From Thermoanaerobaculia bacterium (GTDB lineage Bacteria; Acidobacteriota; Thermoanaerobaculia; Multivoradales; JAHEKO01), in contig JBFGNS010000001.1 in the NCBI GenBank assembly GCA_041574955.1, positions 28,740-92,739 of the forward strand: a stretch of DNA of 64,000 nucleotides, written 5' to 3'. The translations under genes were made by a program, and so were the position numbers. Below, piece after piece: positions 2,514 to 62,153 of this stretch. The stretch's first letter is position 1, and each line of letters opens with the position of its first letter. The notes beneath the pieces are model-generated. The model did no database searches, had not been told where the DNA came from, and was given only the letters and a program-made list of their open reading frames with translations.

Positions 2514-2538
2514 GCCGAAGCTAGCCGGCAGCCGCTTC

Positions 2539-4791: not shown

Positions 4792-4813
4792 TACGCTGTC
4801 TCCTTGCTGCGGG

Positions 4814-7103: not shown

Positions 7104-7236
7104 CCGGGTGGCCGGCAGCTCTGCCGGCTCGCCGCGGACGCGGCCGCCGGCCGGTGTTCTAAGATTGCGCCTCGACGGTGCCGCGCGCGGCACCAGCCGC
7201 CGGTCCGGTTGCTTGCCGCCGCGTGCCGGAGAGCCG

Positions 7237-8160: not shown

Positions 8161-8167
8161 CCGCGGC

Positions 8168-11468: not shown

Positions 11469-11562
11469 GGCGGCTTGGGGCGGGCTCGCGGCGGGCGGTC
11501 GGAGGGAGCGGCGGGTAGCGTACGACAGGCCGGAGCCGCCGGCAACCTGCGGCTCCGACGGT

Positions 11563-12519
11563 ATGATTGCCGCCGTGCAAGCGCCGCTGATCGTCATCGC
11601 CGTGGGGGGCAACTCGCTCATCCGGGACGCCCAGCACATGACGGTGCTGGACCAGTACATCGCTGCCGGCGAGACCGCCGAGCACATCGCCGACATCGTC
11701 GAGGCCGGCTTCAGGGTGCTGATCACCCACGGCAACGGCCCGCAGGTGGGCTTCATCCTGCTGCGCTCGGAGCTGGCCAAGGACAAGGTGCACCAGGTGC
11801 CGCTGGAGAGCTGCGTCGCCGACACCCAGGGAGCGATCGGCTACCAGATCGAGCAGACGCTGTCGAACGAGCTCGTCCAGCGCGGCGTCCGCCGGCAGAT
11901 CTCGGTGGTGGTGACGCAGGTGGTGGTCGACCGCGCCGATCCGGCGCTCGGCAAGCCGTCCAAGCCGATAGGCCCGTTCCTGTCGGAGGAGGAGGCCGGC
12001 CGGCGGCGGGACAAGGACGGCTGGGAGATGGTCGAGGACGCCGGCCGCGGCTGGCGGAGGGTGGTGGCCTCGCCCCGGCCGCTCGAAGTGATCGAGCTGG
12101 AAGTGATCCGCCTGCTGCTCGACGCCGGCGTCATCGTCATCGCCGCCGGCGGCGGCGGCATCCCCGTGGTGCGCGACGAGGCCGGCCGGTTGACCGGCGT
12201 GCCGGCGGTGGTCGACAAAGACGCCGCCTCGTGCCTGCTGGCCAAGAACCTGGGGGCCGAGATCCTGATGATCTCGACCGGTGTCGAAAAGGTGGCGCTC
12301 AACTACCGCAAGCCCGACCAGACCTGGATCGACCGCATGACGGTCGCCGAGGCCCGCCGCCACCTCGAGGACGGGCAGTTCGCGGCCGGCAGCATGCGGC
12401 CGAAGATCGAGGCGGCGATCGACTTTCTGGAGAGCGGCGGCGCCAAGGTCATCATCACCGAGCCTCACGTGCTGGAGGACGCGCTGTTCGGCCGCACCGG
12501 CACGCTGGTGGTGCCGTGA
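11563..12519 (+). CDS. arcC: carbamate kinase
   Basis: LIVIAVGGNSL ... VLITHGNGPQVGF signature; divergent from ygeW. Confidence 0.85.
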   Translation: MIAAVQAPLIVIAVGGNSLIRDAQHMTVLDQYIAAGETAEHIADIVEAGFRVLITHGNGPQVGFILLRSELAKDKVHQVPLESCVADTQGAIGYQIEQTLSNELVQRGVRRQISVVVTQVVVDRADPALGKPSKPIGPFLSEEEAGRRRDKDGWEMVEDAGRGWRRVVASPRPLEVIELEVIRLLLDAGVIVIAAGGGGIPVVRDEAGRLTGVPAVVDKDAASCLLAKNLGAEILMISTGVEKVALNYRKPDQTWIDRMTVAEARRHLEDGQFAAGSMRPKIEAAIDFLESGGAKVIITEPHVLEDALFGRTGTLVVP

Positions 12520-16196: not shown

Positions 16197-17755
16197 GGCT
16201 GGGCTCCGTATTCGAGTATCCGGGTGGCGCCGTCGAGGGCACTACCGTCGGGGCCGGCAGTCTCGTAGAAGAACTTGCGCAGCAGGTTGCGCGCCACCTG
16301 CCGGCGGTAGCCGCGGCTGGCCCGCATGTCGCTGATCGGTGTGAAGTCGGCGTCGAGCGCCTCCAGGCCGGCGGCGACCGCCTCCTCGCTCCAGCGAGCG
16401 CCCTCGATCGCCTGCTCGCACCGCCGCGCTCGCTCGGGCGTCGCCGACATGCCGCCGAAACCGATGCGGACGTCGCGCGCCCGGCCGTCCTCGAGCCGCA
16501 GGCAGAACGCCGCGCACACCGCCGAGATGTCCTGGTCGAACCGCTTCGAGATCTTGTAGGCGCGGAACAGACGGTCCGGTGGGGTGAGCGGTATACGCAC
16601 CCGCTCGAGCAACTCGCCCGGCTCGAGGGCGGTCCGGCGGTAGCCGAGGTAGAACTCGTCGAGCGGCAGCTCGCGGCGTCGCTCGCCGCGAACCAGCACC
16701 ACGCTGGCGTCGAGCGCCAGCAGCGCCGGCATCGAGTCGCCGATCGGCGAGCCGTTGACGACGTTGCCGCCGAGGGTCGCGGCGTTGCGGATCGGCGGCG
16801 AGGCGAAGCGCCGTAGCAGCTCGCCGAAGTCGGGGAACCGCTCGGCCAGCTCCCGGTAGGTGTCGGTCAGGGTGACGGCGGCGCCGATCTCGAGGTGGCC
16901 GTCGGTCACCTCCAGCCGGCGCAGCTCCTCGACGTTGCCGACGTAGATCGTCTGCTCGATCTGCCGCAGCTCCTTGGTGATCCACAGGCCGACGTCGGTG
17001 CAGCCCGCCACCAGCCGGGCGTCGGGATGCCGCTCGGCCAGCTCGGTCAGCTCGGCCAGCCGGGTGGGCGCCCAGTAGCGGTGCTCGCCGCCGCCCGCCG
17101 CCGGGGCGGCGAGCTCGAGGCACCGGCGCCGGCCGAGGCCGCGCAGCCGCTCGACCAGCTCGCGCTCGTCGGCGCCGGGCTGTCCGCCCGGATCTGCCGG
17201 CGCGTGCAGCCAGTGGCCGTTGGCGCTCCGCCCGCGCTCGTACATCGCCCGCGCGGCGTCGAGAATCGGCCGGTAGCCGGTGCAGCGGCACAGGTTGCCG
17301 GCCAGCACGTCGCGGATACGCCGGCGGTCGGGATCGCGCTCGGACTTGTAGAGCGCGAACAGCGACATGACGAAGCCCGGCGTGCAGAAGCCGCACTGCG
17401 AGCCGTGGCAGTCGACCATCGCCCGCTGCACCGGATGCAGCTCGCCGTCGGGCGAGACCAGCGACTCGACGGTCACCAGGAGCTTGCCGTCGAGCGTCGG
17501 CAGCAGCTGGATGCAGGAGTTGAGGGCGCGGAAGCGGAGGCGGTCGCCGTCGAGCTCTCCAACCACCACCGTGCAGGCGCCGCAGTCGCCCTCGGCGCAG
17601 CCCTCCTTGGTGCCGGTGCGGCGCAGGTGCTCGCGCAGGTAGGTCAGGACCGTGGTGTTCGGGTCGAGGCCCGAGACCGCGTGGAGCTCGCCGTCGAGCA
17701 GAAAACGGACCGTGCCGCCGGGCTCGTCGGCTTCGGCCTGATTCGCCGCCGTCAT
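16193..17755 (-). CDS. xdhA: xanthine dehydrogenase small subunit ([2Fe-2S] + FAD-binding)
   Basis: CAEGDCGACTV and CGFCTPG/CRCTGY [2Fe-2S] motifs, CO-dehydrogenase flavoprotein domain; GGAGGAGG SD before ATG 17755. Confidence 0.85.
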   Translation of the reverse strand: MTAANQAEADEPGGTVRFLLDGELHAVSGLDPNTTVLTYLREHLRRTGTKEGCAEGDCGACTVVVGELDGDRLRFRALNSCIQLLPTLDGKLLVTVESLVSPDGELHPVQRAMVDCHGSQCGFCTPGFVMSLFALYKSERDPDRRRIRDVLAGNLCRCTGYRPILDAARAMYERGRSANGHWLHAPADPGGQPGADERELVERLRGLGRRRCLELAAPAAGGGEHRYWAPTRLAELTELAERHPDARLVAGCTDVGLWITKELRQIEQTIYVGNVEELRRLEVTDGHLEIGAAVTLTDTYRELAERFPDFGELLRRFASPPIRNAATLGGNVVNGSPIGDSMPALLALDASVVLVRGERRRELPLDEFYLGYRRTALEPGELLERVRIPLTPPDRLFRAYKISKRFDQDISAVCAAFCLRLEDGRARDVRIGFGGMSATPERARRCEQAIEGARWSEEAVAAGLEALDADFTPISDMRASRGYRRQVARNLLRKFFYETAGPDGSALDGATRILEYGAQP

Positions 17756-17845
17756 GGTGTCGCCTCCTCCGGACAGCACGCCAGGGAGTCGAGAAGGCTG
17801 TCGGGAGTATAGCGCCAGCCGGCGCGCTCCGGCTGCCCGCCTCGA

Positions 17846-19153
17846 CTAGCCGCCGGTGCGGACGGTGTAGAAGACGATCAGCAACGCGCCCAGCAGGTAC
17901 ATCAGCGGGTGGATGTCGCGGAAGCGGCCGCGCAGCAGCTTGATCGCCACCCAGGAGACGATGCCGAAGCTGATGCCGTTGGCGATCGAGTAGGTGAACG
18001 GCATGGTCGCGGCGGTCAGGAAGGCCGGCACCGCCTCGTCGATCCGCGACCAGTCGATCTCGCGCGCGCCCTGCATCATCAGCGCACCGACCACGATCAG
18101 CGCCGGCGCGGTGGCGAAGGCGGGCACCGCGGTGAACAGCGGCGTCAGGAACAGCGACAGCAGGAACAGCAATCCGACCACCACCGCGGTCAGGCCGGTG
18201 CGACCGCCCTCCTCGACGCCGGTGGCCGACTCGACGTAGCTGGTGACCGTGCTGGTGCCCACCGCCGCCCCGACCATGGTGCCGACGGCGTCGGCCGCGA
18301 ACGCCCGCTCGGAGCGCGGCAGCTCGCCCCGCTTGTCGACGAAGCCGGCCAGCCGGCCGACGCCGATCAGCGTACCGGCGGTGTCGAAGATGTCGACGAA
18401 CAGGAACGCCAGCACCACCAGCAGCAGCTTGCCGGTCATCAGGCCGGAGAAGTCGAGAGCGAAGAGCGTCTCCTCGGGCAGCCCCGGCCAGCTGACGAGC
18501 TGGACGGGGGGCGCGATGATCCCGGCTCCCCAGGCGATGCCGGTAACGCCCAGGATGCCGATAAGGATCGCACCCCTTACGCGCGCCGACATCAGCACCG
18601 CCATCACCACCAGCCCGGCGAGCGCCAGCAGGGCGGTCGCGGCATGCACGTCGCCCAGGGTCACCAGCGTCGCCGGGTGGTCGACCACCAGGCCGGCGTT
18701 CTGGAAGCCGATGATCGCCAGGAACAGGCCGATGCCGCTCATGGTGGCGATCTTGATCGACTGCGGGATGGCGCGCAGCAGGGCGGTGCGCACCCCGGTC
18801 AGCGCCAGCACCAGGAACAGCGCCCCCTCGACGAAGACAGCCGCCAGCGCCACCTGCCAGGAGATCCCCATGCCGAGCACGACGCCGAAGGTGAAGTAGG
18901 CGTTCAGACCCATGCCGGGCGCCAGCGCGAACGGGTAGTTGGCCAGCAGGCCCATCGCCAGGGTGGCGGCGGCCGAGGCCAGAGCGGTGGCGACCGCCAC
19001 GTCGCTCGCCGGCAGGCCGGCCTGCGACAGGATCTGCGGGTTGACGAACAGGATGTAGGACATGGTGAGGAAGGTCACCACGCCCGCCCGCACCTCGGTG
19101 GCCACCGAGCTGCCCTGGGCCTCGATCCGGAACCACCGTTCCAGCACGCTCAC
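17846..19153 (-). CDS. pbuG: NCS2 family purine permease (AzgA/PbuG-like adenine/guanine/hypoxanthine permease)
   Basis: VLERWFRIEAQGSSVATEVRAGVVTFLTMSYILFVNPQIL typical AzgA N-terminus; GTG start 19153 (or 19147) inferred. Confidence 0.75.
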   Translation of the reverse strand: MSVLERWFRIEAQGSSVATEVRAGVVTFLTMSYILFVNPQILSQAGLPASDVAVATALASAAATLAMGLLANYPFALAPGMGLNAYFTFGVVLGMGISWQVALAAVFVEGALFLVLALTGVRTALLRAIPQSIKIATMSGIGLFLAIIGFQNAGLVVDHPATLVTLGDVHAATALLALAGLVVMAVLMSARVRGAILIGILGVTGIAWGAGIIAPPVQLVSWPGLPEETLFALDFSGLMTGKLLLVVLAFLFVDIFDTAGTLIGVGRLAGFVDKRGELPRSERAFAADAVGTMVGAAVGTSTVTSYVESATGVEEGGRTGLTAVVVGLLFLLSLFLTPLFTAVPAFATAPALIVVGALMMQGAREIDWSRIDEAVPAFLTAATMPFTYSIANGISFGIVSWVAIKLLRGRFRDIHPLMYLLGALLIVFYTVRTGG

Positions 19154-19159
19154 GGAGTG

Positions 19160-19175
19160 GCGATTATACCTCCGG
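19160..19175 (-). promoter_or_regulatory. candidate -10 box (TATAAT) plus GGAGG immediately upstream of pbuG-like start
   Basis: GGAGGTATAATCGCCACTCCGTG on minus strand; TATAAT 10 nt before GTG suggests near-leaderless transcript. Confidence 0.3.
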
Positions 19176-19213
19176 CGCCGGGCGTCGGCGGTGAGGGGGC
19201 TTGAGGCTTCGGG

Positions 19214-19290
19214 CCGGGTGCGCTGGGCGGTCGGGGCCCGGGGCTGCGCTCCAAAGGCGAGGGTGATGTCGCTCCGCCCCGGGCCCCCGC
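19214..19290. repeat. about 75-bp conserved element, copy A (inverted relative to copy B at 23152-23225)
   Basis: ctgcgctccaa(a/t)ggcgagggtgatgtcgctccgccc(c)gggcccccgc shared with reverse complement of 23152-23225; about 85% identity over about 75 bp. Confidence 0.8.
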
Positions 19291-19452
19291 GCGGTTGGCG
19301 CACCCTCCGGGGGGGTGGCTGAGGAGCGGCGGTCGCTTCGAGGGGCAGCGAGATCCGGGGCTACCTCCTGCTATGCTGACTTCGTTCCCTCAGCGATGGC
19401 CCGCGCTCCCCGGGCGAGTGCCTCGTCAGGCTGGAGGCGGGCGGCCGAGCCG

Positions 19453-25212: not shown

Positions 25213-27837
<2,625 letters not shown>

Positions 27838-28180
27838 CTGGAACCTCCTGGCTGGCCGGGGACAGGCCCGGCGATGGCTACCGGCTCGACCGTGCGGCCG
27901 GAGCATGGTGGCTGCCGGGGGTCGGCGGCCCTGCTTCGGAGCTCCGGGGTCGCCCCGTGCGAGCAGCGGCAAAAAGGACGCATTGATTCTATCAGGTGGC
28001 GGGCCGAGGCCGCCCGCGGCGAGTCAAACCGCGCCGCTTCAGGAGGTTACGCCGAGGGGCGGAATCCGTCTCGCGGATCGGCTACAATCCGGGCGTCTCA
28101 AGACCATCGCTTTCAGCGGGGGCGCCGGAGTCGCCGGGTCGGTCGCGCCGGTGCAGTTCCGCAGGCTGAAGGGAGGCGCC

Positions 28181-51775: not shown

Positions 51776-53341
51776 TCACAGCCGGCGCAGGTCGAGGCGC
51801 GAGAAGTCCGGGATCCCCAGTGGGTCGGGCTCGAAGTTGCGCACCTGGAAGGAGTGCACGTAGACCACCGAGCCAGTGACCAGGGGCAGCAGCGGCACCT
51901 CCTCCGCGATCGCTGCCAGCAGCTCGTGCTGGAGCGCCGTCGAGGGGTCCAGCCGGAGCTCCTTGAGCAGCCCATCGACCGCCTCGTTGCGCCAGCGCGA
52001 CAGGTTGGCGTGGATGGAGATCGGGCGGTCGGTGGTCGGGATGGAGTCGGAAGCCAGGCATGCCTCGAGGTAGTCGACCGGGTCGAGGGTGTCGGCGATC
52101 CAGCCGGTGAGCGCCATGTCGTAGTCGCCGCTGGCGACCCGGCGGAAGTAGTCCTCGCTGTCGCGCGCCGGCTCGATCTCGACGGCGATGCCCAGCTCGG
52201 CGAGCTGTCCGGCGATGTAGCGGGCGACGGCGCGCGGCTGCGGCAGGTAGGGACGAGGTCCGAAGATCACCATCAGGCGCAGCCGCTCGGGGCGGGGCCC
52301 GGGTGCCTGCTCGAGCAGCGACCTGGCCCGGTCCAGCCGGTAGAGGAGGCCGTCACGCCAGCTCGACATCATCGGCGGCAGCAGACCGGCAGCCGTGATC
52401 GCCAGCGGATTGGTGGGGTAGCACAGGGTCGCCACCTCGACGCGGTCGATGGCGGTCGCCAGGGCTCTGCGCACCTCGCTGCTGGCCAGCTCGGGCCGCT
52501 CGGTGTTGAAGTACAGGATCGACGTGGAGTTGCCCGGGGCGAACGCCTTGCGCACCCGGCGCAGCTCGCTGGTGTCCTCCCGGTTGAGCACGTTGGTGAA
52601 GTCGACCCGGCCCTCTTCGAGCGCCGCCAGCAGCGCGGTCGGTCGGCCCTCCTCGTCCGGTGGATAGCAGGTGAAGCGCAGCTCGCCGATCGCCGGCGGC
52701 GGCTGGTGGTGCGGGTTGCGCGTCAGGTGGAGGCGCTGGGGGGTGGAGTCGTCGGCCAGCCGGTACGGTCCGGTGCCGAGCAGCGCCGAGCCGCTCTCGA
52801 GCACCACCCCGGAATACGGCTCGGCCAGCACCAGCTCGAAGCGGGCGTTGGAACGACGCAGGTGGAAATGCAGGCGGTCGCCGCTCACTTCGGTGGAGGC
52901 CAGGTCGCGGATGTGACTGACGCGCGCCAGCGAGCGCGCCAGCAGCTCGGGCGTGAGCGGCGTGCCGTCGGAGAATCGGACGTCGGGACGCACCTGCGCC
53001 GAGTAGCGGGTGCGATCTTCGGACTCGCTCGCCAGCGGCTCGCTGAACAGCACCGGTCGGGCTGGCTCGTCTCCCTGTGGCGGCGCGAACGGTGTCTCGA
53101 AGATCTGCGATACCGCCATCAGGCTGACGAAATCCTGCGCGCGGCTGGGGTCGAGGTTCTGCACCTCGGAGATCAGGCCGATACGCAGCAGTTTAGCGTC
53201 GCCGGCGGTGGCTTCGGGATCGGGCAAGGTGGGCCTCCTCAAAGCGTCGGGCGGGGTGTCGTCCGGTCGGTTACGATACCAGTCCCTCATCGAGCGCGGG
53301 CCGCTCGGCGGCCGGTCGCTCGCGCCTTCGGTGGCCGTCAT
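51776..53341 (-). CDS. SBP_bac_5 (peptide/nickel-type) solute-binding-like protein, no obvious signal peptide
   Basis: KLLRIGLISEVQNLDPSRAQD... family-5 SBP pattern; start M1 or M18 (53290). Confidence 0.55.
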   Translation of the reverse strand: MTATEGASDRPPSGPRSMRDWYRNRPDDTPPDALRRPTLPDPEATAGDAKLLRIGLISEVQNLDPSRAQDFVSLMAVSQIFETPFAPPQGDEPARPVLFSEPLASESEDRTRYSAQVRPDVRFSDGTPLTPELLARSLARVSHIRDLASTEVSGDRLHFHLRRSNARFELVLAEPYSGVVLESGSALLGTGPYRLADDSTPQRLHLTRNPHHQPPPAIGELRFTCYPPDEEGRPTALLAALEEGRVDFTNVLNREDTSELRRVRKAFAPGNSTSILYFNTERPELASSEVRRALATAIDRVEVATLCYPTNPLAITAAGLLPPMMSSWRDGLLYRLDRARSLLEQAPGPRPERLRLMVIFGPRPYLPQPRAVARYIAGQLAELGIAVEIEPARDSEDYFRRVASGDYDMALTGWIADTLDPVDYLEACLASDSIPTTDRPISIHANLSRWRNEAVDGLLKELRLDPSTALQHELLAAIAEEVPLLPLVTGSVVYVHSFQVRNFEPDPLGIPDFSRLDLRRL

Positions 53342-56300
53342 CGCCGGGGCTCGGCGCCTGCCGCGTCTCGGGCAGCGAGAAGTGGAAGCTGGCCCCGCTG
53401 CCGGCGCCCGCCGACTCGACCCACACCCGCCCGCCGTGGGACTCGATGACGCGCCGAACGATCGCCAGGCCGACCCCCGTCCCCTCGCGGCGGGGGTCGA
53501 GGCGCTCGAACAGGTCGAAGATCTTGCGGTGGAAGCGCGGATCGATGCCGATGCCGTTGTCGCGCACCCAGACCTGCGGTTGTTCCCCGTCCGGCGTCCA
53601 GCCGACTTCGACGCGCGGCGGAACCGACTCGCGCCGGAACTTGATCGCGTTCTCGATCAGGCTCTGGAAGACCTCCACCAGCCGGGCGCCGTCGACGCGC
53701 GCCATCGGCAGATCGGGGGCGACCCGCACGGTCGCCCGTGCTTCGCGGATCGGGCCTTCGCAGCGCTGAAGCGCCTCCTCCGCCAGCGCGGTCAGCGGAT
53801 GCCAGCGCGGAGCGTGCTCGACCCGCCCGATGCGCGCCAGATCCAGCAGGTGGCCGAGCTTGGAGGCCATGCTCCGGGTGGCTCGGTCGATGCGGTCGAG
53901 GTCGTGCCTCACGCGATCGAAGTCGCCCTCCTCGAGGTCCCGCTCGAGCACGCCCAGAAAGCCGCGGATGGTGACCAGCGGACTCTTCAGGTCGTGCGAG
54001 ATGGAGTAGGTGAACCGCTCGACCTCTTCGCGGCTGGCGCTCAGCTTCTGCACCAGCTGCTCGAGCTGGGCGTTGCGGCGGCGGCTGGCCGCGAGCCGCC
54101 ACCGGAACAGCTGCGCCACCACCGCCGCGGCCGCCAGCAGACCGAGCAGGCGGATGGTGGGGCGCTGGTGCCACAGCGGCAGCACGCGCAACGGCCGGCT
54201 GGCGCCGGCCGGGTCCCACACCCCATCGTTGTTGGCCGCGATGACGTGGAAGGTATACGCCCCCGGCTCTAGGTTGGTGTAGCGCACGCTGCGCGCACCG
54301 CTCGCCTCCTGCCACTCGGTCTCGAAGCCGTCGAGCCGGTAGCGCGCGCGCACCTTGGCGGGCGCGACGAAGCTCAACACCGAGAACCGGAAGACCAGCT
54401 CGCGGGTGCCGGCGGCGATCCGCGGCCGGAGCCCCGGCTCGGACACCCTGCGGCTGTCGGCCACCAGCGCGTCGACGGCCACCAGCGGCGGCACCGAGTT
54501 GCGCAGGATGCGATCGGGCCGGATGCGGGCCACCCCGGCAAGTGTCGGGAACCACAGCCGTCCGCCGGCGTCCTTGAGGATCGCTGCCGAGGCCGTGCAC
54601 TCGCGGTGAGGCAGACCGTCGCTCTCGTCGAAGACCTCGACCGACAGGCGCCCGCCCGAGCCGTCCAGCACCGAGGCCAGCTGGCGGTGTTCGAGCCGCA
54701 GTACGCCGATCGGCGAGGTCGCCCAGATCGCGCCCTCGCCGTCGTGCAGCAGATCGAAGACGGCGTCCGTCGGCAGCCCCTGGCCGACCGACACGGCCGA
54801 CACCCGTCCGTCGCGCAGCCGGGCGATGCCGCCGTTGGTGGCGATCCAGAGGCCACCCTCGGCATCAGGGCGCGCCCTGAAGACCAGGCTCCCGGGCAGG
54901 CCGTCGGCCACCGTGTAGCTGCGGATCGAGCCGTCGGGCGCCCGCACGTCGAGACCGGCGTGGGTACCGACCAGCAGGTTGCCGGCGGCGTCCTCGCCCA
55001 GCGACAGGATGAAGTTGGAGCTCAGCCCGGCGGACTGGTCGAGCGTCTCGAATCCGCCGCCCTCCAGCCGGCGCAGCAGGCCGGCGTTGCGGGTGCCGAC
55101 CCACAGTTCGCCGGTGCGATCTTCGAAGACCAGCCGCACCTGGTTGGTCGGCAGCCCGTCAGCCGTGGTGTAGAGCCGCTCGACGCTGCCGCGCTTGGCG
55201 AGCAGTCCGGCGTGGCTGGAGATCCACAGCGTGCCGTCGCGGGCGCGCAGCGCGTGCCTCATGCGCACGCGGCCGACCGGGGTGGCGAGCGGAAACGGTT
55301 CGACGGCGTCGTCACGGATGAGCTGGAGCATGCCGTTGTCGGCGCCGATGAGGTGACGGCCTGGTGCGATCTCGGAGATGAAGTTGACCCGCTCCGGGGC
55401 CGGGCCTCCGCTCACCCGGAAGCGGCTGAACTTGGCCGAGCGCAGCTGAAACAGGCCCTCGCCGTAGCTGGCCAGCCACAGGCTGCCCTCGCGATCGACC
55501 AGCAGCGCGCTGACCGGACCGAAGGCGGCGCCGTCGGCGGTCAGCGGGCGGGTGAGGGATCCGTCGGCGGGGGTGTAGCGAAACGCTCCCTGCTGCGACG
55601 CGATCCACAGGCTGCCGCGCTCCCCCTCGTACAGCCGGAAGATCTCCAGGTGGCCGGTATCCGGCACGGATTCCAAGCGGCCGTCGGACAGTCTGCTGAG
55701 CCCTTCCTGGGTTCCGATCCAGAGCGCTTCGGCGGTCTCGAGCAGGCTGCTGGCGGCGTTACTGATCAGGCCGTCGGCCGTGGTGTAGGTGCGGCTCGCC
55801 TCGCCGTCCGCCAGTCGGGTGACGCCCTTGCCCTCGGTGGCGAACCAGAGCGCGCCGTCGGCGGCGCGCAGGATGTCGCGGACGCTCACCGCCTGCAGGG
55901 CGGCGACGTCGACCGGTTCGATCCGGCCGTCGGTGAAGCGGAAGGCGCCGGCATCGTCGGTGCCGACCCAGACGCTGCCGCCGGGCTCGGGCAGCAGGCT
56001 GCGCACGCTGTAGGCGAACTTCTCCGAGGTCGCCAGCGGATGGAAGTCGCCGTCGCGCAGCAGCAGCACGCCGCTGCTCTGGGTGCCGATCCACAGCACG
56101 CCGTCACGGTCCTCGACCAGCTCGAGGACGCCGTTGCCGCGCAGCTCGGCGCGACGCGGTCGGGCCATGGTCGCGGCGATGCGGTGGCGGTCGAAGTTGA
56201 CGAAGCTGCTGCCGTCGAAACGCACCAGCCCGCTGAGGCTGGCGATCCAGAGATAGCCGTCGCGCGACTGCAGCACATCGAGCAGCAGGTTGCTGGCCAG

Positions 56301-56485
56301 CCCCTCCTCACTCGTCCAGCGCGTCACCAGCTGCTGCGCGGGTGCCGGCGGCTCGAAGGTCGCCGAGCGGTGGGCATCGGCCGCCGCGACCGGTGGCGCG
56401 AGTGCCGCCAGCGCCGCCACCACGGCGGCTGGCGACCGGCGCCGACGCGGCGGGTGTGCCTCGAGCGAGGCTCTGGCGGCAGAGG
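53271..56485 (-). CDS. sensor histidine kinase with periplasmic two-component-regulator propeller repeats and Y_Y_Y domain
   Basis: Repeated ...DG.LWIGT... propeller blades, TM, HisKA FTYSISHDLKSPL, HATPase VRDNGIGID; start inferred (TTG about 56485) after FetB stop. Confidence 0.7.
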
Positions 56486-56557: not shown

Positions 56558-57364
56558 TCAACGCCGGCCGACGGAGCGCAGCCGGGCGTGCAGGAACTGG
56601 TGGGCCGGAGTGAACAGCCGCCGGTAGCCGAGCAGCACCACGCCCAGGGTGCCCAGGGCGGTGGCCGAGGCGATCAGGAACATGATCACCACCTGGTAGC
56701 GCACCGCCTGCACCGGCTCGACTCCCGCCAGCAGCTGTCCGGTCATCATGCCCGGCAAGCTGACGATGCCGGCGATCATCATCGAGTTGACGATCGGGAT
56801 CATGCCGGTGCGCACCGCAGAGCGCACCGGCCCGCGGGCCGCCTCCCAGCGCGTTGCGCCGAGTGCCAGCAGCCCCTCGACCTCCGCGCGGCGCCCGGTG
56901 AGCTCTTCTCCCAGCCGGTCCAGCCCGAGCGAGATGCCGTTGAGCGCGTTGCCCAGGATCATGCCCAGGAAGGGGATCGCGTACTGCGGACGGAACCACG
57001 GCCGGACCTCGACCACCGCCGCCAGCGCCACCGCCGCGATCAGCCACGAGGCGGCCCAGATCGATACCAGACTGTCGAGCCAGATGCCCGGGTAGCGCCG
57101 CGGCGTGCGGCGAACGGCCGCGATGCCGGCGGCGATCGTCATCAGAGCCATCAGGTCGACCACCGGCGGCCAGCGGCTGATGGCGAAGACCCACTCCAGC
57201 ACCAGTCCGACCAGCAGCAGCTGGACGGTCATGCGCACCGCCGCGAGCAGCAGCCGACGGTGGAGCTCCAGCCTGAGCGTCAGCGAGATCGCGGCGTTGA
57301 TCAGGATGAGCAGGGCCGCGATGCCGAGCTGGCCGTACGACAGCTCCAGGTAGCCTGCCGTCAC
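56558..57364 (-). CDS. fetB: FetB/YbbM-like (UPF0014) ABC exporter permease
   Basis: VTAGYLELSYGQLGIAALLIL N-terminus typical of FetB; GTGA overlap with upstream ATPase. Confidence 0.65.
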   Translation of the reverse strand: MTAGYLELSYGQLGIAALLILINAAISLTLRLELHRRLLLAAVRMTVQLLLVGLVLEWVFAISRWPPVVDLMALMTIAAGIAAVRRTPRRYPGIWLDSLVSIWAASWLIAAVALAAVVEVRPWFRPQYAIPFLGMILGNALNGISLGLDRLGEELTGRRAEVEGLLALGATRWEAARGPVRSAVRTGMIPIVNSMMIAGIVSLPGMMTGQLLAGVEPVQAVRYQVVIMFLIASATALGTLGVVLLGYRRLFTPAHQFLHARLRSVGRR

Positions 57365-58029
57365 GCCGGCTCCTCTTCCAGGCGCCCGCCGCTCAGCCTG
57401 AGGTGGCGGTCGGCGACGCCGCCGGCGAGTCCCGCGTCGTGGGTGACCCACAGGTAGGCGCGGCGGCCGGCGGCGGCGTGCCAGCCGGCGATCGACCGCC
57501 GCGCGAGCTCGGCCGAGGCGGGGTCGAGGGCCGCCGTCGGCTCGTCCAGCAACAGCACCGTGGGCTCGAGCTGGAGCAGGCGGGCGAGGGCCACGAGCTG
57601 CGCCTCGCCGCCGGAGAGCTGTGAGCGGTCGCGGGCCAGCAGGGAGGCGTCGCGGCCCAGCTGCTCGAGCAGCTCGGCCGCCCGCCGCCGCTCGAACCGC
57701 CTCTGGCGGTGCACCGCGAGCGAGAACGGCAGCCGCAGGTTGTCCTCGACCGAGCCGTCGAGCAGCGCCGGCTGCTGGTGGAGGTAGGCGATCCGGCTGC
57801 GGTAGGCCGGGCTGTCGCCTGGCGCCAGCTCACGGCCTTCGAGACGTAGCGAGCCCTCGGCCAGCGGGTCGAGCAGCGCCAGGGCACGCAGCAGGAGGGT
57901 CTTTCCGGAGCCCGAGGGACCGCTCAGCGAGATCCGCTCACCGGCTCCGATCGTGAGGCTCCGGTCGCGGAACAGCCAGCCGCCGTTGGCGCGGCGACCG
58001 AGTCGGCGGGCTTCGACGAGCGGCGGCAT
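57361..58029 (-). CDS. fetA: FetA/YbbL-like ABC transporter ATP-binding protein
   Basis: GPSGSGKT Walker A, LSGGEAQ signature, LLLDEPT Walker B; 222 aa. Confidence 0.75.
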   Translation of the reverse strand: MPPLVEARRLGRRANGGWLFRDRSLTIGAGERISLSGPSGSGKTLLLRALALLDPLAEGSLRLEGRELAPGDSPAYRSRIAYLHQQPALLDGSVEDNLRLPFSLAVHRQRRFERRRAAELLEQLGRDASLLARDRSQLSGGEAQLVALARLLQLEPTVLLLDEPTAALDPASAELARRSIAGWHAAAGRRAYLWVTHDAGLAGGVADRHLRLSGGRLEEEPA

Positions 58030-58138
58030 CGTATGGCGGCCGGGCCCTCGGGCCGGCGGCCTGCATGCTAGCGTGTCGCCGGCCGCGGCCCGTCGCCGGC
58101 GCCGCGGCCGCGAAGGACGCAGGCAGGGGGCGAGGTCG

Positions 58139-59515
58139 ATGCGGAGCGACAACGGCGCAGCCGAGGCGGGAGGGCTTTTCGGACAGGCCTGGGCGGCGAG
58201 CCTGGGCGGCGAGCTGCGCCGCAGCGAGGCGTTTCGCCGGGCCGCGGCCGGCTGGCAGGGCACCCTCGTGCTCGAGCTGCTGGAGGAGCCGGCGGCCGAT
58301 GGCGGCCAGCGGGGAGTGCTCATCGAGCTGGCCGACGGCGTCTGCCGCCAGGCGCGCGCCAGCCGGCCGGCCGACCGGGAGCGCGCCGCGTTCGTCATCG
58401 CGGGCGGAGTCGACGGCTGGCAAGGCGTGCTGGCCGGCTCGGCGTCGCCGCTGACCGCTCTGCTGCGCGGCCGCCTGCGCCTGGTGAAGGGCAAGCTCAC
58501 CAGCCTGATGCCGTTCGCCGCCGCCGCCGAAGAGCTGGCGCGCTGCGCCGCGCGCCTGGTCGGCGCCGGCGCCGCGCCGGCCGCCGCCGAGGCGCCGCGC
58601 CGGCCGCCGTTTCGCAGCACCTCGGCCGCCGGTCTGGCGACGGACTCGCCGCCGATGCAGCTGTGGGAGAAGGCCAAGCGCCATGGGATCTGGAATCCGC
58701 GCGCCATCGACTTCACCACCGACCGGCGCCAGTGGCTGGAGCTCGACGACGAGGAGCGCGACCTGCTGCTGCGGCTGGCGGCGCTGTTCGGAGGCGGCGA
58801 GGAGTCGGTGACGCGCGAGCTGCTGCCGCTGATCCGGGTCATCGCCCGCGAGGGCCGGTTGGAGGAGGAGATGTTCCTCACCGCCTTCCTGTGGGAGGAG
58901 GCCAAGCACGTCGAGGCCTTTCGGCTGTTCTTCGACGAGGTGGCCGGTGAGCAGGGCGATCTGGACCGCTACCACACGCCGGCCTGGCGCCGCATCTTCT
59001 GCCACGAGCTGCCGGCGGCGATGGCCCGTCTCGACGACGATCGCTCGGCGGTGGCCCAGGCGCGCGCCTCGGTGACCTACAACATGATCGTCGAGGGGGT
59101 GCTTGCCGAGACCGGATACCACGTCTACCACTCGGTGCTCGTGGAGAGGGACATCCTGCCCGGCACCCGGGAGATGGTCGGTTACCTGCAGCGCGACGAG
59201 TCGCGTCACCTGGCCTACGGCGTCTACCTGCTGACGCGGCTGGTGGAGGAGCACGGCGAGCCGGTCTGGCAGGCGATCGAGCAGCGGATGGACGAGCTGC
59301 TGCAGCCGGCGCTGGCGATCGTGCAGGAGGTGTTCGATCTCTACCCTCCGGGAGGCGCCCCGTTCGGGCTCGAGGCGAGCGCCTTCCTCGACTACGCCAA
59401 CGGCCAGTTCGAGCGCCGCCTGGAGCGGATCGACCGCGGCCGGCGCGGTCGCCCACCGGGCAGCGAGCCCTCAAACGGAGCCGGCGGGCCCCAACATCTA
59501 GCGCCTGGCGCTTGA
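58139..59515 (+). CDS. fusion protein: N-terminal SCP2 sterol-carrier domain + C-terminal R2-like ligand-binding oxidase (ferritin-like di-metal carboxylate)
   Basis: SCP2-like ...LRGRLRLVKGKLTSLMPFA; R2lox metal ligands GEE, EEAKHVE (ExxH), NMIVEGV, RDESRH (ExxH). Confidence 0.7.
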   Translation: MRSDNGAAEAGGLFGQAWAASLGGELRRSEAFRRAAAGWQGTLVLELLEEPAADGGQRGVLIELADGVCRQARASRPADRERAAFVIAGGVDGWQGVLAGSASPLTALLRGRLRLVKGKLTSLMPFAAAAEELARCAARLVGAGAAPAAAEAPRRPPFRSTSAAGLATDSPPMQLWEKAKRHGIWNPRAIDFTTDRRQWLELDDEERDLLLRLAALFGGGEESVTRELLPLIRVIAREGRLEEEMFLTAFLWEEAKHVEAFRLFFDEVAGEQGDLDRYHTPAWRRIFCHELPAAMARLDDDRSAVAQARASVTYNMIVEGVLAETGYHVYHSVLVERDILPGTREMVGYLQRDESRHLAYGVYLLTRLVEEHGEPVWQAIEQRMDELLQPALAIVQEVFDLYPPGGAPFGLEASAFLDYANGQFERRLERIDRGRRGRPPGSEPSNGAGGPQHLAPGA

Positions 59516-59569: not shown

Positions 59570-59884
59570 ATGGCGGCAGACTGGAAGTTCGACGACGCGG
59601 CGGTTGGCAGCGACCTGGACGGTTTCGCCACCGACGGCCGGCGGGCCCTTGCCGTCGCGCGCGCCACACTGCAGGCGTACCAGGAGAAACGGCCGGAGCG
59701 TGCCGACCCGCAGGCTTTGCGCGAGGCGGCGGTCCAGGTGACCGAGGCCAGGCGCAGGCTGCGCGAGATCGACCGCGACCTGCTTGCCGACGCCGAGAGC
59801 CTGCTCGAGGAGCTGCTCGATCGTATCGACCGGCCCGAGGCTGCCGCCGCTCCCCGGACGGCCGCCCTGGGTACCGGGCGGTAG
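59570..59884 (+). CDS. small acidic hypothetical protein (104 aa) leading the ECF sigma operon
   Basis: Good SD, helical/acidic composition, no recognisable domain. Confidence 0.5.
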   Translation: MAADWKFDDAAVGSDLDGFATDGRRALAVARATLQAYQEKRPERADPQALREAAVQVTEARRRLREIDRDLLADAESLLEELLDRIDRPEAAAAPRTAALGTGR

Positions 59885-59983: not shown

Positions 59984-60565
59984 ATGAGAGCGGAATGCGC
60001 CAGCCTGGGCCGGTCGCCGCTGGCCCCTACCGCGCGGATGGCAGCCGGCGCCGACGTTGATGCCGAGCTGGTGCGACGCGCGCGCGGCGGCGAGCTGGGC
60101 GCCTTCGAGCATCTCTACCGCCGCCACTGCGGGCGCGTCTACGCGCTCTGCCTGCGGCTGACGGCCGACGCCGGCAGCGCGGAGGAGCTGACCCAGGAAG
60201 CGTTCGTGCGGGCCTGGCGCCGGCTGGGCTCGTTCCGGGCCGCCAGCAGCTTCGGCACCTGGCTCCACCGGCTGGCCGCCAATCTGTCGATCGACGCCTT
60301 GCGCGCGCGGCAGCGCTGGCACCAGCGGTTCATCGGCGGCGAGCTGCCGGAGGCTTCCTCCGCGCCGGCCGACCCGGCGGCGGCGGTAGATCTCGAGCGC
60401 GCCATCGCGACGCTGCCGCCGCGCGCGCGAGCCGTGTTCGTGCTGCACGACGTCGAGGGCTACCGTCACCGCGAGATCGCGCGGATGTGCGGCCTCTCGG
60501 TCGGCACCAGCAAGGCCCATCTGCACCGGGCGCGACGCAAGCTGAGGGAGGTACTGGATCGATGA
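59984..60565 (+). CDS. ECF sigma factor (second copy in window)
   Basis: DAELVRRARGGELGAFEHLYRRH region 2, C-terminal region 4 HTH; alternative start at 60038. Confidence 0.8.
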   Translation: MRAECASLGRSPLAPTARMAAGADVDAELVRRARGGELGAFEHLYRRHCGRVYALCLRLTADAGSAEELTQEAFVRAWRRLGSFRAASSFGTWLHRLAANLSIDALRARQRWHQRFIGGELPEASSAPADPAAAVDLERAIATLPPRARAVFVLHDVEGYRHREIARMCGLSVGTSKAHLHRARRKLREVLDR

Positions 60566-61218
60566 GCTGTGATCGCGTGGACCGACGTCTCGAGGAGCTG
60601 GCCGCCGGCCGGCTGCTGGGCGCCGCGCGCCGCGCCGCCGAGCGCCACCTGGAGAGTTGTGCGCGCTGCCGGCAGCAGCTCCGCCTGGCGCGGCGGTTGG
60701 CGCGGGAGGTGGCCGCCCTACCGCGACGCTCGGAGCCGCGCCGCGACCTGTGGCCCGGCGTCACGCGGCGCCTCGGCCCGGCCGGACCCGGGCGTCGCGA
60801 CGCCATGGTGGGCGGCCGCGGGCCGGGTTCGGCCTGGCGGCTGGCCGCCGGTCTGGCGGTGGTGAGCGCGGGGCTGGTCGCCGGCTGGCTCGCCGGCCGG
60901 CCCGCCGCGGGTCCGGTGGCGGTGGCCGAACCGCCGGCGGCAGCCGAGGCGCCGGCAGCGGCCGCGGCGAGCGCCCGTCACGAGGCCGGCATGGACCACG
61001 CCTACCGCGACCTGGTGGTGGCGGCGGCGGAGCGGCGCGACCGGCTCGACGAAAGCGGCACCGCGGCGCTCGAAGCCGGTCTCGCCGAGCTCGAGAGGGC
61101 GGTGGCCGAGGTCGGGGAAGCCGCCACCTTCAGCCCCGGCAACCTGCGGTTGGAGCTGCTGCTGGCGGCAGCGCTGCGACGGGAATCGGAATGGGCTTCG
61201 AGGCTGCGCCAGCTGTGA
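60562..61218 (+). CDS. zf-HC2 zinc-finger anti-sigma factor
   Basis: ATGA-coupled to sigma; HLESCARCRQ (H-x3-C-x2-C), single TM. Confidence 0.7.
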   Translation: MSCDRVDRRLEELAAGRLLGAARRAAERHLESCARCRQQLRLARRLAREVAALPRRSEPRRDLWPGVTRRLGPAGPGRRDAMVGGRGPGSAWRLAAGLAVVSAGLVAGWLAGRPAAGPVAVAEPPAAAEAPAAAAASARHEAGMDHAYRDLVVAAAERRDRLDESGTAALEAGLAELERAVAEVGEAATFSPGNLRLELLLAAALRRESEWASRLRQL

Positions 61219-61265
61219 CGCCGGCCCAGGTGTCCAAGCAACGACTGTCGAAGGAGAATCGGACA

Positions 61266-62153
61266 ATGCGCAAGATCACCCTGCTGTTCCTGGCTGCGAC
61301 CGCCGTCGCCGGCGTAGCTTTCGCCGACCGCCCGGTGGACGAGACCCGGCCGGCGGCGGCGAACGCGACCATCTCGATCGAGGTCATCTCCGGCGGCGTC
61401 ACGGTGACCGGTTGGGCGCGCCCGGAGCTGTCGATCCGCGGCAGCCTGGGGGACGACGTCGAGGAGTTGCGGATCGACGGCGACCGCGACGGCTGGACGG
61501 TCAAGGTCAAGGTGCCGCGGCAGGCGGGGCGCAGGCACCGCGACATCCACGCCAACCTCGAGGTGCGCGTGCCGGCCGGCGCCAGCCTCGACGTCGAGGC
61601 GGTCAGCGCCTCGGTCGGCGCCAGCGGGCTCACCGGCCGCGTCGAGCTGTCGGCGGTGAGCGGTGACGTGACGCTCGACGGCGGCCTGGAGGAGGCCAAG
61701 CTGACCTCGATCAGCGGCGACGTGCGGTTGAAGGGGTCGGCCGGGCGGGTGACGGCCGAGGCGGTGAGCGGCGACATCGTGCTCGAAGGCGTCGGCCGCC
61801 GGGTCGCGGCCAGCACGGTGAGCGGCTCGATCGAGCTGACCGCCGGCAGCGTGGAGCGGGCGGAGCTCGAGTCGGTCTCGGGCTCCATCGACTACCGCGG
61901 CGGCCTGGCGGCCAGCGGCTCGCTCGAGGTGGACGCGCACAGTGGCAACGTCAGGCTGCAGATGCCGGCGGCAACCAGTGCGCGCTGGTCGGTGTCGACC
62001 TTCAGCGGCCGCATCGACAACGGCTTCGGGCCGCCGGCGCAGCGCGACAGCCGCCACGCCCCCGGGTCGAGCGTCGAGTTCGAGACCGGCGCGGCCGGCG
62101 GCCGGATCGAGGTGCAGACCTTCAGCGGCAACGTGACCCTGAAGCAGAGTTGA
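61266..62153 (+). CDS. DUF4097 beta-repeat putative adhesin
   Basis: Signal peptide; repeated ...SGDV.L.G... beta-strand units typical of DUF4097 found downstream of sigma/anti-sigma pairs. Confidence 0.65.
   Translation: MRKITLLFLAATAVAGVAFADRPVDETRPAAANATISIEVISGGVTVTGWARPELSIRGSLGDDVEELRIDGDRDGWTVKVKVPRQAGRRHRDIHANLEVRVPAGASLDVEAVSASVGASGLTGRVELSAVSGDVTLDGGLEEAKLTSISGDVRLKGSAGRVTAEAVSGDIVLEGVGRRVAASTVSGSIELTAGSVERAELESVSGSIDYRGGLAASGSLEVDAHSGNVRLQMPAATSARWSVSTFSGRIDNGFGPPAQRDSRHAPGSSVEFETGAAGGRIEVQTFSGNVTLKQS

Follow-up and report, generated by a model that had tools for sequence, protein, structure and literature searches.

An SCP2-type lipid-carrier domain fused to an R2-like ligand-binding oxidase: domains, distribution and proposed function

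Oxidases of the R2-like, ligand-binding type (R2lox) are Mn/Fe proteins that have been well studied by structure and spectroscopy since 2009, and their natural role is unsettled. The gene at positions 58139-59515 of the window analysed here, by which we mean the whole stretch of 64,000 nucleotides, raises the question of what a lipid carrier is doing in the same polypeptide as such an oxidase. An earlier note on this DNA had read the gene as one continuous ORF in which an SCP2 sterol/lipid-carrier domain is joined to an R2lox core, and had suggested a lipid-modifying oxidase with a built-in substrate shuttle. A 2022 comparative study considered that finding the partner of R2lox may be a way to its substrate (PMC9314684), and no description of an SCP2-R2lox fusion was found in the literature searched, R2lox papers included. 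The fusion is a testable lead on this enzyme family.

A single open reading frame

The ORF list gives a forward-strand frame that runs open from 57953 until the stop at 59513-59515; the SCP2 and R2lox domains share this one frame, with zero stops between them. M1 matches the start Met in at least 90% of 46 aligned homologs, and in-frame starts before 58139 would lead to an overlap with the divergent ABC ATPase gene, which starts with the ATG at 58029 on the reverse strand. The region between the two genes presumably holds the promoter; a promoter/terminator scan found no sigma-70 consensus, which in host DNA of 73% GC says little. The features are these:

58030..58138, no strand: intergenic region of 109 bp toward the divergent ABC ATPase gene (gene boundaries)
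58125..58135, + strand: Shine-Dalgarno-like purine-rich stretch AGGGGGCGAGG, 3 nt 5' of the ATG (read from the sequence)
58139..59515, + strand: SCP2-R2lox fusion gene, complete, 458 codons plus stop (ORF list)
58169..58570, + strand: TT1886-type SCP2 domain, aa ~11-144 (phmmer, Foldseek, family profile)
58571..58615, + strand: interdomain linker GAGAAPAAAEAPRRPP, Ala/Pro-rich, aa ~145-159 (AF2 pLDDT, DSSP)
58616..59458, + strand: R2-like ligand-binding oxidase domain, a ferritin-like helical bundle, aa ~160-440 (NF006202, 3ee4, Foldseek)
58799..58810, + strand: E221 (site-1 Glu ligand) to V224 (cross-link Val), motif G-E-E-S-V (aligns with E68/V71 of MtR2lox)
58898..58909, + strand: first ExxH, with E254 (bridging Glu) and H257 (invariant in the alignment)
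59078..59095, + strand: Y314 (cross-link Tyr) to E319 (Glu ligand), motif T-Y-N-M-I-V-E-G (invariant in the alignment)
59198..59209, + strand: second ExxH, with E354 and H357 (invariant in the alignment)
59459..59512, + strand: C-terminal tail, aa 441-458, disordered and Arg/Gly/Pro-rich (pLDDT <50 at aa 445-458; unconserved in the alignment)

The claim of a single ORF is borne out by this uninterrupted frame of 458 aa with its conserved start Met. M173 was considered as an internal start that might split the gene and was rejected, being a conserved residue inside the N-terminal helix of R2lox that is present in stand-alone proteins too. The frame is continuous, and neither two translation products nor a loss of metal-ligand conservation, either of which the note had named as speaking against its reading, was found for this gene. 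An AF2 model of the 458-aa protein reached a pLDDT of 89.8 and a pTM of 0.81, the latter of which, in a protein of 135 + 280 aa, suggests a defined arrangement of the domains.

Two recognisable folds

The oxidase domain passes the HMM check that the earlier note had proposed, matching the NCBIfam R2lox equivalog NF006202 over aa 161-436 with 360 bits (cutoff 315); it also matches NF006200 (233 bits, cutoff 194) and the M. tuberculosis R2lox 3ee4 (E 1.4e-63), and Foldseek aligns the AF2 model with the R2lox structures 3ee4, 7qbp, 4hr0 and 7qbk at target-normalised TM scores of 0.81-0.85. The core that had been described as two ExxH motifs plus two Glu is complete: the six metal ligands E221, E254, H257, E319, E354 and H357 are invariant in the 46 homologs and align with E68/E101/H104/E167/E202/H205 of MtR2lox, and both members of the V224/Y314 cross-link pair are present and equally invariant. 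From the overall conservation of the fold, a hydrophobic channel for a long-chain ligand is likely in this domain; in R2lox, PMC9314684 notes a variable gating loop where the channel is entered. A weak sequence match to the aldehyde-cleaving enzyme ADO (aldehyde-deformylating oxygenase; 5uxg, E 0.016) was seen as well.

The N-terminal domain is an SCP2 fold as well, as the note had claimed. In phmmer searches it matches the Thermus SCP2-like structures 1wfr (E 7.7e-22) and 2cx7 (E 1.4e-21), and Foldseek places the AF2 model on 2cx7_B with a TM of 0.89, an rmsd of 2.1 Å over 130 columns, E 3.4e-9 and 40% identity; 1wfr is likewise matched by this fold search, and the helix/strand order of the model agrees with the SCP2 fold. 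The N-domain search was run with a 16-sequence profile and found 312 stand-alone homologs, many of them named "SCP2 sterol-binding domain-containing protein"; the family profile reaches 1wfr/2cx7 at E 8e-46, and W18, W39, G41, G67, C69 and W94 are invariant in the family. The corresponding HMM check had a mixed outcome, since Pfam PF02036 (SCP2) gave no match for the protein itself even at E<=1, but matched 15 of 16 aligned N-domain relatives, with a best value of 1.3e-8, and a precomputed PF02036 match exists for about 40% of the fused homologs. The miss here is attributed to a general model that is too insensitive for a divergent, high-GC member.

The Ala/Pro linker that had been proposed between the domains is found at aa ~145-159, where the model is coil by DSSP and has its lowest internal pLDDT (64 for the block 141-150). 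Across homologs the equivalent region is a variable, low-complexity tether of 28-75 aa without a conserved motif, and the protein at 58139-59515 has the shortest linker among the fused set, with 25 aa between the HMM envelopes.

Fusion, adjacency and operon linkage across genomes

The SCP2-R2lox architecture is widespread, and databases already list it as "R2-like ligand-binding oxidase": full-length homologs of the fusion fill more than 100 clusters at 47-66% identity. When 80 related genome loci were sorted by stop-to-stop frames plus HMM, half (40/80) had a one-frame fusion, 20 had a separate SCP2 ORF immediately upstream of R2lox on the same strand, three had the order SCP2-ADH-R2lox and 17 had R2lox without a detectable SCP2 nearby; the linked fraction is inflated, since a fused query had been used to rank the loci. 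As the 17 lone R2lox loci make plain, the carrier is not a necessity. Some separate genes lie very close to fusion: at L078 the SCP2 and R2lox genes overlap by an ATGA stop/start and are kept from fusion by a frame shift, and L054, L010 and L015 have separate ORFs that are one in-frame stop away from fusion, the stop at L054 lying 18 nt ahead of the R2lox ATG. In a crude NJ tree the fused forms make up two coherent clades with adjacent-gene clades as their neighbours, a pattern that may reflect a single or rare origin of the fusion. By R2lox-domain similarity, the protein at 58139-59515 groups with MAGs assigned to Thermoanaerobaculia, Multivoradales and "Deltaproteobacteria".

Split versions of the two modules occur in catabolic surroundings. 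In Kyrpidia tusciae (CP002017) the genes run SCP2, Zn-ADH, R2lox, ALDH, directly after genes for 3-hydroxyacyl-CoA dehydrogenase/enoyl-CoA hydratase, thiolase and acyl-CoA dehydrogenase; an Alicyclobacillaceae MAG has SCP2, Zn-ADH, R2lox and ALDH in that order, and Deinococcales MAGs have SCP2-ADH-R2lox. The Kyrpidia R2lox is 53% identical to the R2lox domain of the fusion. In these split SCP2/Zn-ADH/R2lox/ALDH operons the two modules are clearly inherited together. The 20 abutting or overlapping gene pairs and the Deinococcales and Firmicutes operons form the comparative genomics behind the suggestion of a built-in substrate shuttle, and they support it. A natural covalent fusion counts as "Rosetta-stone" evidence for TT1886-type SCP2 as a partner of R2lox, and this evidence is made stronger by the series that leads from an operon with an intervening ADH, through adjacent or overlapping genes, to a fused ORF. 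It also provides a first functional context for TT1886, whose structure was solved without a function.

The surroundings of the gene itself are of another kind. The Kyrpidia ADH and ALDH have no homolog in the 64-kb window by tblastn, Pfam annotation found no lipid or redox partner among 20 further window ORFs, and the window showed no gene for ADH, ALDH, ferredoxin, a reductase or beta-oxidation. Neighbour clustering over the 80 loci gave no conserved neighbour that the fused loci have in common, and the leading "neighbour" clusters were shadow ORFs of the fusion gene or generic Ser/Thr kinases; the pathway context of the fused form is therefore borrowed from distant split-gene relatives of about 50% identity. 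The divergent FetAB-like iron-exporter pair beside the gene was considered as a metal link and rejected, and is taken as a coincidence because it does not recur in the other loci.

Proposed function, rival readings and known systems

We propose, with a probability of roughly 55%, that the product of the gene is a soluble enzyme of two domains, in which the SCP2 carrier hands a long-chain aliphatic substrate to a Mn/Fe R2lox for O2-dependent oxidation, probably hydroxylation. A poorly soluble long-chain aliphatic compound, which is likely an alkane or an alkyl chain, would be drawn by the SCP2 domain out of the membrane or a lipid body. Joined to the oxidase by the short flexible Ala/Pro linker, this domain would keep the substrate concentrated at the entrance of the R2lox channel. 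By family precedent, that channel, leading toward the metals, would hold the long aliphatic chain, and a Mn/Fe (or Fe/Fe) centre assembled on E221, E254, H257, E319, E354 and H357 would activate O2. Once reduced by an external electron donor, the Mn/Fe site would oxidise the substrate by two electrons, most likely through hydroxylation. The fatty alcohol that is the likely product would pass through alcohol dehydrogenase and aldehyde dehydrogenase to beta-oxidation, by enzymes that are operon partners in Firmicutes and Deinococcales and would here be encoded outside the window.

The earlier note had described R2lox as being of unknown function, which is partly dated. In the part of the 2024 report consulted (PMC10867098), alkane hydroxylation is claimed for GkR2loxI, the gene for which lies within an ADH/ALDH/beta-oxidation cluster, on the weak evidence of crude lysates that reduced C10-C22 alkane levels with a modest loss of substrate; that part cites no product identification, and activity fell little in a double mutant of the ligands. 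In the work of Diamanti et al. (PMC9314684), bound fatty acids were not turned over and the physiological substrate was considered unknown. In haloarchaea, R2lox genes are described as clustering with genes for ferredoxin and a sterol-carrier protein and as being induced by hexadecane, according to the summary of a 2020 study given in PMC9314684.

The same architecture could serve another chemistry, a possible though rather unlikely account: R2lox would oxidise a fatty acid, hydroxy fatty acid, fatty alcohol or aldehyde, or a complex lipid, by in-chain hydroxylation, desaturation, epoxidation or C-C cleavage, for instance, instead of oxidising alkanes, and SCP2 would carry that lipid. Recombinant R2lox co-purifies with metal-bound C16/C18 hydroxy fatty acids, and binding-pocket shapes vary among R2lox homologs (PMC9314684). 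Stand-alone members of the TT1886-type SCP2 subfamily are elsewhere paired with the same ADH where R2lox is absent, and others lie between acyl-CoA synthetase and wax-ester synthase/DGAT, with phasins and without R2lox, so the cargo may be fatty alcohols or aldehydes and not alkanes. Against this, no product of the bound fatty acids appeared when GkR2loxI was taken through redox cycles, aldehyde-deformylating activity was absent from MtR2lox and SeR2lox (PMC9314684), and the position of R2lox between ADH and ALDH near beta-oxidation genes fits an upstream hydroxylation more simply.

It is improbable that SCP2 is no shuttle at all and acts as a membrane or lipid-droplet anchor, a channel lid or regulator, or an oligomerisation or solubility module. 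Free-standing SCP2 proteins of ~140 aa exist in many genomes, some of them split from R2lox by an ADH gene, which a diffusible carrier explains better than an anchor or lid, and disordered linkers that reach about 66-75 residues in other fused members point to a tethered mobile domain, even though swinging is limited by the linker of this protein, the shortest of the fused set, and a pTM of 0.81 would also suit a permanently docked lid. An anchoring role would accord with the view of Diamanti et al. (PMC9314684) that R2lox may need to come close to the membrane, through a patch of positive surface and its mobile C-terminus.

It is very unlikely that the single ORF is an artefact of assembly or sequencing, with a lost stop or a frameshift hiding two proteins made by the cell, in spite of the sister lineages noted above that are one stop (L054, L010, L015) or one frame shift (L078) from fusion. 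An identical 458-aa protein is on public record (P0001), and its 90%-identity cluster holds two further 458-aa sequences from different contigs; the frame runs uninterrupted at 40 genome loci and in more than 100 protein clusters, and the fused forms are clade-specific and not scattered. The junctions of fused members, with linkers of 25-66 aa, carry no conserved start codon or Shine-Dalgarno context, and M173 belongs to R2lox in stand-alone proteins too.

The reading as a small subunit of ribonucleotide reductase that bears an unrelated extension at its N-terminus, as might be drawn from a Pfam PF00268 match and from the JGI label "ribonucleoside-diphosphate reductase beta chain" on several homologs, is effectively refuted by the NCBIfam RNR beta models, all far below cutoff (best NF007186, 55 bits against 237), by PDB matches of which the best are all R2lox, with RNR R2 proteins at 17-22% identity, and by Phe261 at H257+4 in place of the radical Tyr of class Ia/Ib (we take this Tyr, in class Ia R2, to lie four residues after the first His ligand, as in E. 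coli H118/Y122), and no large-subunit (R1) domain occurs among those window ORFs annotated.

If the proposed reading as a hydroxylase of long-chain aliphatic compounds is true, abundant soil phyla carry an unrecognised route for the oxidation of long-chain hydrocarbons or fatty alcohols. We also consider, tentatively and at well below even odds, that TT1886-type SCP2 is the long-sought physiological partner of R2lox and that in the fused enzymes the two domains form one unbroken hydrophobic conduit, which brings long-chain alkanes or alkyl lipids out of membranes or lipid bodies to a Mn/Fe centre for hydroxylation; fused enzymes of this kind, in Gemmatimonadota, Acidobacteriota, Chloroflexota and related phyla of soil or sediment, would then be a widespread and so far unrecognised class of self-contained, soluble Mn/Fe alkane or alkyl hydroxylases distinct from AlkB, CYP153, LadA and AlmA. 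The fusion suggests SCP2 for co-expression with R2lox, with the cargo of SCP2 from a native-like host as the ligands to seek, and Kyrpidia tusciae and cultured Gemmatimonas are suggested organisms for genetics.

Among known systems, the stand-alone R2lox proteins (MtR2lox Rv0233, 3ee4; GkR2loxI, 4hr0; SaR2loxI/II of Sulfolobus; SeR2lox of Saccharopolyspora) have the same fold as the oxidase domain of the fusion (TM 0.82-0.85) at 36-43% identity, with the six ligands and the Val/Tyr pair identical. The characterised or crystallised R2lox proteins are all single-domain, of ~290-330 aa, whereas the fusion adds an N-terminal SCP2 domain plus linker of ~145 aa. TT1886 of Thermus thermophilus (1wfr, 2cx7) shares the W, W, H-G-x-C-R, W signature with the N-domain, but is a free-standing structural-genomics protein of ~140 aa without an assigned function, while the copy in the fusion is covalently tied to an oxidase. 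The split operons of Kyrpidia, Alicyclobacillaceae and Deinococcales use the same SCP2 and R2lox subfamilies as separate polypeptides in a catabolic operon, whereas the fusion is a single polypeptide whose neighbourhood is unrelated and has no ADH/ALDH within 64 kb. The GK2771 cluster of G. kaustophilus, published as an alkane-degradation cluster, resembles these operons in having R2lox with ADH, ALDH and beta-oxidation genes, and the part of PMC10867098 consulted mentions no SCP2 gene in it. The haloarchaeal cluster, compared here by its description in part of PMC9314684, likewise combines R2lox with a sterol-carrier-type protein and a link to hexadecane, and differs from the fusion in being archaeal and unfused and in including ferredoxin.

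Two further systems offer comparisons in the delivery of a hydrophobic substrate. In the Ubi metabolon, UbiJ/UbiT use an SCP2 domain to hold a very hydrophobic substrate for soluble hydroxylases (PMC9499169, PMC6747719), which may serve as a mechanistic analogy only, given that the SCP2 subfamily and the oxygenases are different, the complex is non-covalent and the substrate is a polyprenyl-phenol. Cyanobacterial ADO differs from R2lox in lacking the cross-link, in its Fe/Fe site and in cleaving aldehydes, an activity that tested R2lox proteins did not have (PMC9314684). Like R2lox, however, it belongs to the ferritin-like dimetal enzymes and is co-purified with C16/C18 fatty acids; it obtains its hydrophobic substrate directly from a partner, acyl-ACP reductase (PMC9314684).

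One reading frame, two domains

As the earlier note had claimed, an SCP2 lipid-carrier domain and an R2-like ligand-binding oxidase, or R2lox, are encoded in one continuous open reading frame, both domains lying in a single frame beside a divergent ABC transporter pair:

56558-57451, minus strand: UPF0014 permease of a FetAB/YbbLM-like pair, partner of the ABC ATPase
57361-58029, minus strand: ABC ATPase of the pair, upstream of and divergent from the fusion gene
58030-58138: intergenic region of 109 bp between the start codons of the ABC ATPase and fusion genes
58125-58135, plus strand: Shine-Dalgarno-like purine-rich stretch 5' of the ATG
58139-59515, plus strand: fusion gene, 458 aa from the ATG at 58139; frame open from 57953 to the stop codon at 59513-59515

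Three observations favour the ATG at 58139 as the true start: it follows the Shine-Dalgarno-like stretch, it lines up with the start methionine in at least 90% of 46 aligned homologs, and in-frame starts further 5' would enter the ABC ATPase gene (ATG at 58029, minus strand). With a GC content of about 73-78% in the region, long shadow ORFs in other frames are to be expected and mean nothing.

The domain order proposed in the same note, an N-terminal SCP2 domain, an Ala/Pro linker and an R2lox core with two ExxH motifs and two further glutamates, is borne out throughout. The stretch from residue 11 to 144 resembles two SCP2-like entries from Thermus thermophilus, TT1886/1wfr and 2cx7 (E ~1e-21), and a Foldseek search of the PDB places this domain on 2cx7 with a TM-score of 0.89 (rmsd 2.1 Å, 40% identity). 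Because 15 of 16 aligned relatives do match Pfam SCP2, the family profile matches 1wfr/2cx7 at 8e-46, and W18, W39, G67-x-C69 and W94 are invariant across the family, the domain, itself without a Pfam SCP2 match, is a divergent member of the TT1886-type bacterial SCP2 subfamily. The linker that follows is Ala/Pro-rich and is the shortest of the fused set; over the equivalent columns homologs have 28-75 non-conserved, A/P/S/T-rich residues. The 46-sequence alignment yielded a good AlphaFold2 model of the whole protein (pLDDT 89.8, pTM 0.81) that loses confidence only at the termini and the linker, with a pLDDT of 64 for residues 141-150, and the pTM hints that the two domains may adopt a defined mutual arrangement.

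By every available test the protein belongs to the R2lox family. Its C-terminal ~280 residues score 360 bits against the NCBIfam R2lox equivalog NF006202 (cutoff 315), and the closest solved relatives are all R2lox proteins, led by that of M. tuberculosis (3ee4, E 1.4e-63) and followed by those of Sulfolobus, Saccharopolyspora and Geobacillus; Foldseek finds R2lox structures in the PDB at TM-scores of 0.81-0.85. All six metal ligands (E221, E254, H257, E319, E354 and H357) are invariant in the 46-sequence alignment, as is the Val/Tyr pair of the R2lox ether cross-link, V224 and Y314. Phe261 occupies the His+4 position, where class Ia R2 proteins have their radical tyrosine.

Fused, abutting and separate genes

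Over 100 protein clusters of ~430-500 aa match the fusion at 47-66% identity and over 90% query coverage, and many of them already carry PF00268 and PF02036; their NCBI name is 'R2-like ligand-binding oxidase', and at JGI they are wrongly called RNR beta chain. Among 80 related genome loci, 40 are fused, with both domains inside one stop-to-stop frame, 20 have a separate SCP2 ORF directly upstream of R2lox on the same strand, three (all Deinococcales) have SCP2, a Zn-dependent alcohol dehydrogenase (ADH) and then R2lox, and 17 have R2lox and lack SCP2 in whatever flank is available; the linked fraction of 63/80 is an upper estimate, as the loci were ranked by a fused query. Two loci are near-fusion states in which one point change would make or break the fusion: at L078 (9555-10984) the genes share an ATGA stop/start overlap, and at L054 (9839-11332) they lie in the same frame, and a lone stop codon, 18 nt from the ATG of R2lox on its 5' side, parts them.

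A crude neighbour-joining tree of the R2lox domain, calculated without support values, places the fused genes in two coherent clades, one of Gemmatimonadota with the window/Thermoanaerobaculia/Multivoradales/'Deltaproteobacteria' group and the other of Verrucomicrobiota, Calditrichia and Chloroflexota. Both are flanked by adjacent-gene clades, with a minimum of two state changes, and, crude though the tree is, the picture is the classical one of operon partners that first become abutting genes and then a fused ORF, which afterwards spread over phyla. Fused genes on L030 and L031 (match 10001-11275), MAG contigs that bear the label 'uncultured Klebsiella sp.', group closely with sequences of Roseiflexaceae and Thermoflexus; the taxonomic label of the bin is probably wrong.

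An N-domain profile matched 312 proteins; the 120 among them that were listed are without exception free-standing SCP2 proteins, 132-184 aa long. Nine such loci on longer contigs were sampled. The complete genome of Kyrpidia tusciae has the order SCP2, Zn-ADH, R2lox (PF00268, 296 aa) and aldehyde dehydrogenase (ALDH), directly preceded by genes for 3-hydroxyacyl-CoA dehydrogenase/enoyl-CoA hydratase, thiolase and acyl-CoA dehydrogenase and for a GAF-GerE regulator; an Alicyclobacillaceae MAG keeps the same four-gene order. Three of the nine loci have SCP2-ADH without R2lox, three from Acidobacteria have SCP2 flanked on one side by an acyl-CoA synthetase with two ArsA-like ATPases and on the other by a wax-ester synthase/DGAT with phasins, and one has no relevant neighbours. 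At L054, one of the 80 loci above, genes closely related to the ADH (75%) and ALDH (72%) of Kyrpidia lie 3-5 kb upstream. Long-chain aliphatic alcohols, aldehydes and esters are the theme common to the split-form loci.

The Acidobacteria clusters, and the ABC1/UbiB-family atypical kinase genes that lie beside TT1886-type SCP2 both there and at two further loci, are:

L083, about 1-12429: Acidobacteria cluster with kinase gene
L086, 1052-10054: Acidobacteria cluster with kinase gene
L089, 1042-10385: Acidobacteria cluster with kinase gene
L082, 10215-11966: kinase gene
L088, 9258-10429: kinase gene

Conserved in the three clusters are the acyl-CoA synthetase, both ArsA-like ATPases, a TT1886-type SCP2, the wax-ester synthase/DGAT, PHB_acc_N, phasin(s), the UbiB-family kinase and HMG-CoA reductase, which suggests a neutral-lipid or storage-body module employing this SCP2 subfamily. 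One SCP2 protein, P0188, bears the NCBI name 'Fis family transcriptional regulator', probably a misannotation. The kinase recurs in Firmicutes SCP2-ADH-R2lox-ALDH operons as well as in the wax-ester clusters of Acidobacteria; since the UbiB family is tied to lipid and quinone handling, the kinase may be a further conserved SCP2 partner.

In the window the fusion gene appears to be monocistronic and lies outside any lipid pathway. Downstream of it lie:

59570-59884, plus strand: 104-aa ORF with no Pfam match
59984-60565, plus strand: ECF sigma factor
60487-61218, plus strand: zf-HC2 anti-sigma factor, overlapping the ECF sigma gene
61233-62153, plus strand: DUF4097 'toastrack' protein

The last three (59984-62153) form a typical three-gene envelope-stress-type module. 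The FetAB/YbbLM family exports iron in E. coli, and a metal-homeostasis link between the ABC pair and a Mn/Fe oxidase gene is conceivable; no FetAB-like pair recurs beside R2lox among the 80 loci. Neither the ADH nor the ALDH of Kyrpidia has a homolog in the window, and 20 further window ORFs annotated with Pfam include xanthine-dehydrogenase-type enzymes, transporters, a SNF2 helicase and a TonB receptor, with no ferredoxin, reductase or fatty-acid genes among them. Also encoded are a large sensor histidine kinase (53271-56399, minus strand; Reg_prop beta-propeller repeats, Y_Y_Y, HisKA, HATPase_c) and what looks like a purine-catabolism neighbourhood, with a xanthine-dehydrogenase-type molybdoenzyme (MoCoBD and FAD/2Fe-2S subunits) adjoining a xanthine/uracil permease (13857-19360, minus strand) and a second MoCoBD/Fer2_2 protein further on (25213-28023, minus strand). 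No neighbour conserved across fused loci elsewhere was found. Such neighbourhoods fit a self-contained enzyme with partners encoded elsewhere, and the pathway proposed below is therefore borrowed from relatives of ~50% identity.

Proposed role and its rivals

One polypeptide joins an SCP2 fold, through a variable flexible linker, to an R2lox fold with complete conserved metal and cross-link residues, and genetic coupling of exactly these two modules recurs. We propose that the SCP2 domain collects a poorly soluble long-chain aliphatic substrate and offers it to the R2lox channel, where the Mn/Fe centre, reduced by some donor, would activate O2 and oxidise the chain, most likely by hydroxylation; the product would then pass through ADH and ALDH enzymes to beta-oxidation. 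We give this reading a probability of about 0.55.

Published hints on R2lox agree with the theme of the split-form loci. During purification R2lox proteins retain C16/C18 hydroxy fatty acids, which they do not turn over, and haloarchaeal R2lox genes are described as clustered with ferredoxin and sterol-carrier-protein genes and induced on hexadecane (PMC9314684). GkR2loxI, in an ADH/ALDH/beta-oxidation cluster, is claimed as an alkane hydroxylase on the basis of a modest alkane loss in crude lysate, a ligand double mutant having only slightly reduced activity; an SCP2 gene goes unmentioned there (PMC10867098). The same SCP2-R2lox architecture acting on another lipid class, or by other chemistry, is a lesser though serious possibility. 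It is improbable that the SCP2 domain is an anchor or lid and not a shuttle. A sequencing artefact is also an improbable source of the single ORF; the public protein collection already has an identical 458-aa protein, and its 90%-identity cluster contains two more 458-aa sequences from other contigs. An RNR role would suit the only Pfam match of the R2lox part, the generic PF00268, but it is very unlikely, as every NCBIfam RNR beta-subunit model falls far under its cutoff (the best at 55 bits vs 237).

Relation to known systems

The fusion architecture is already abundant in databases under automatic names, and an association between R2lox and sterol-carrier genes is on record for haloarchaea, so the fusion is not categorically new. 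A literature search found no paper on R2lox and SCP2 together; of the papers from 2023-2026 in which R2lox is mentioned, none, judged by title or abstract, has a fusion as its topic. As a lead, the fusion nominates a concrete partner for an enzyme family with a debated substrate, supplies functional context for TT1886, the type structure of the subfamily to which the N-domain belongs, and directs attention towards tractable organisms and experiments. The closest analogies in mechanism are the SCP2 proteins UbiJ/UbiT, which keep hydrophobic intermediates for soluble hydroxylases, and ADO, which takes aldehydes from its reductase partner. All R2lox proteins solved or assayed so far are single-domain, whereas the window protein is a covalent fusion with SCP2 and in this respect unlike everything characterised.
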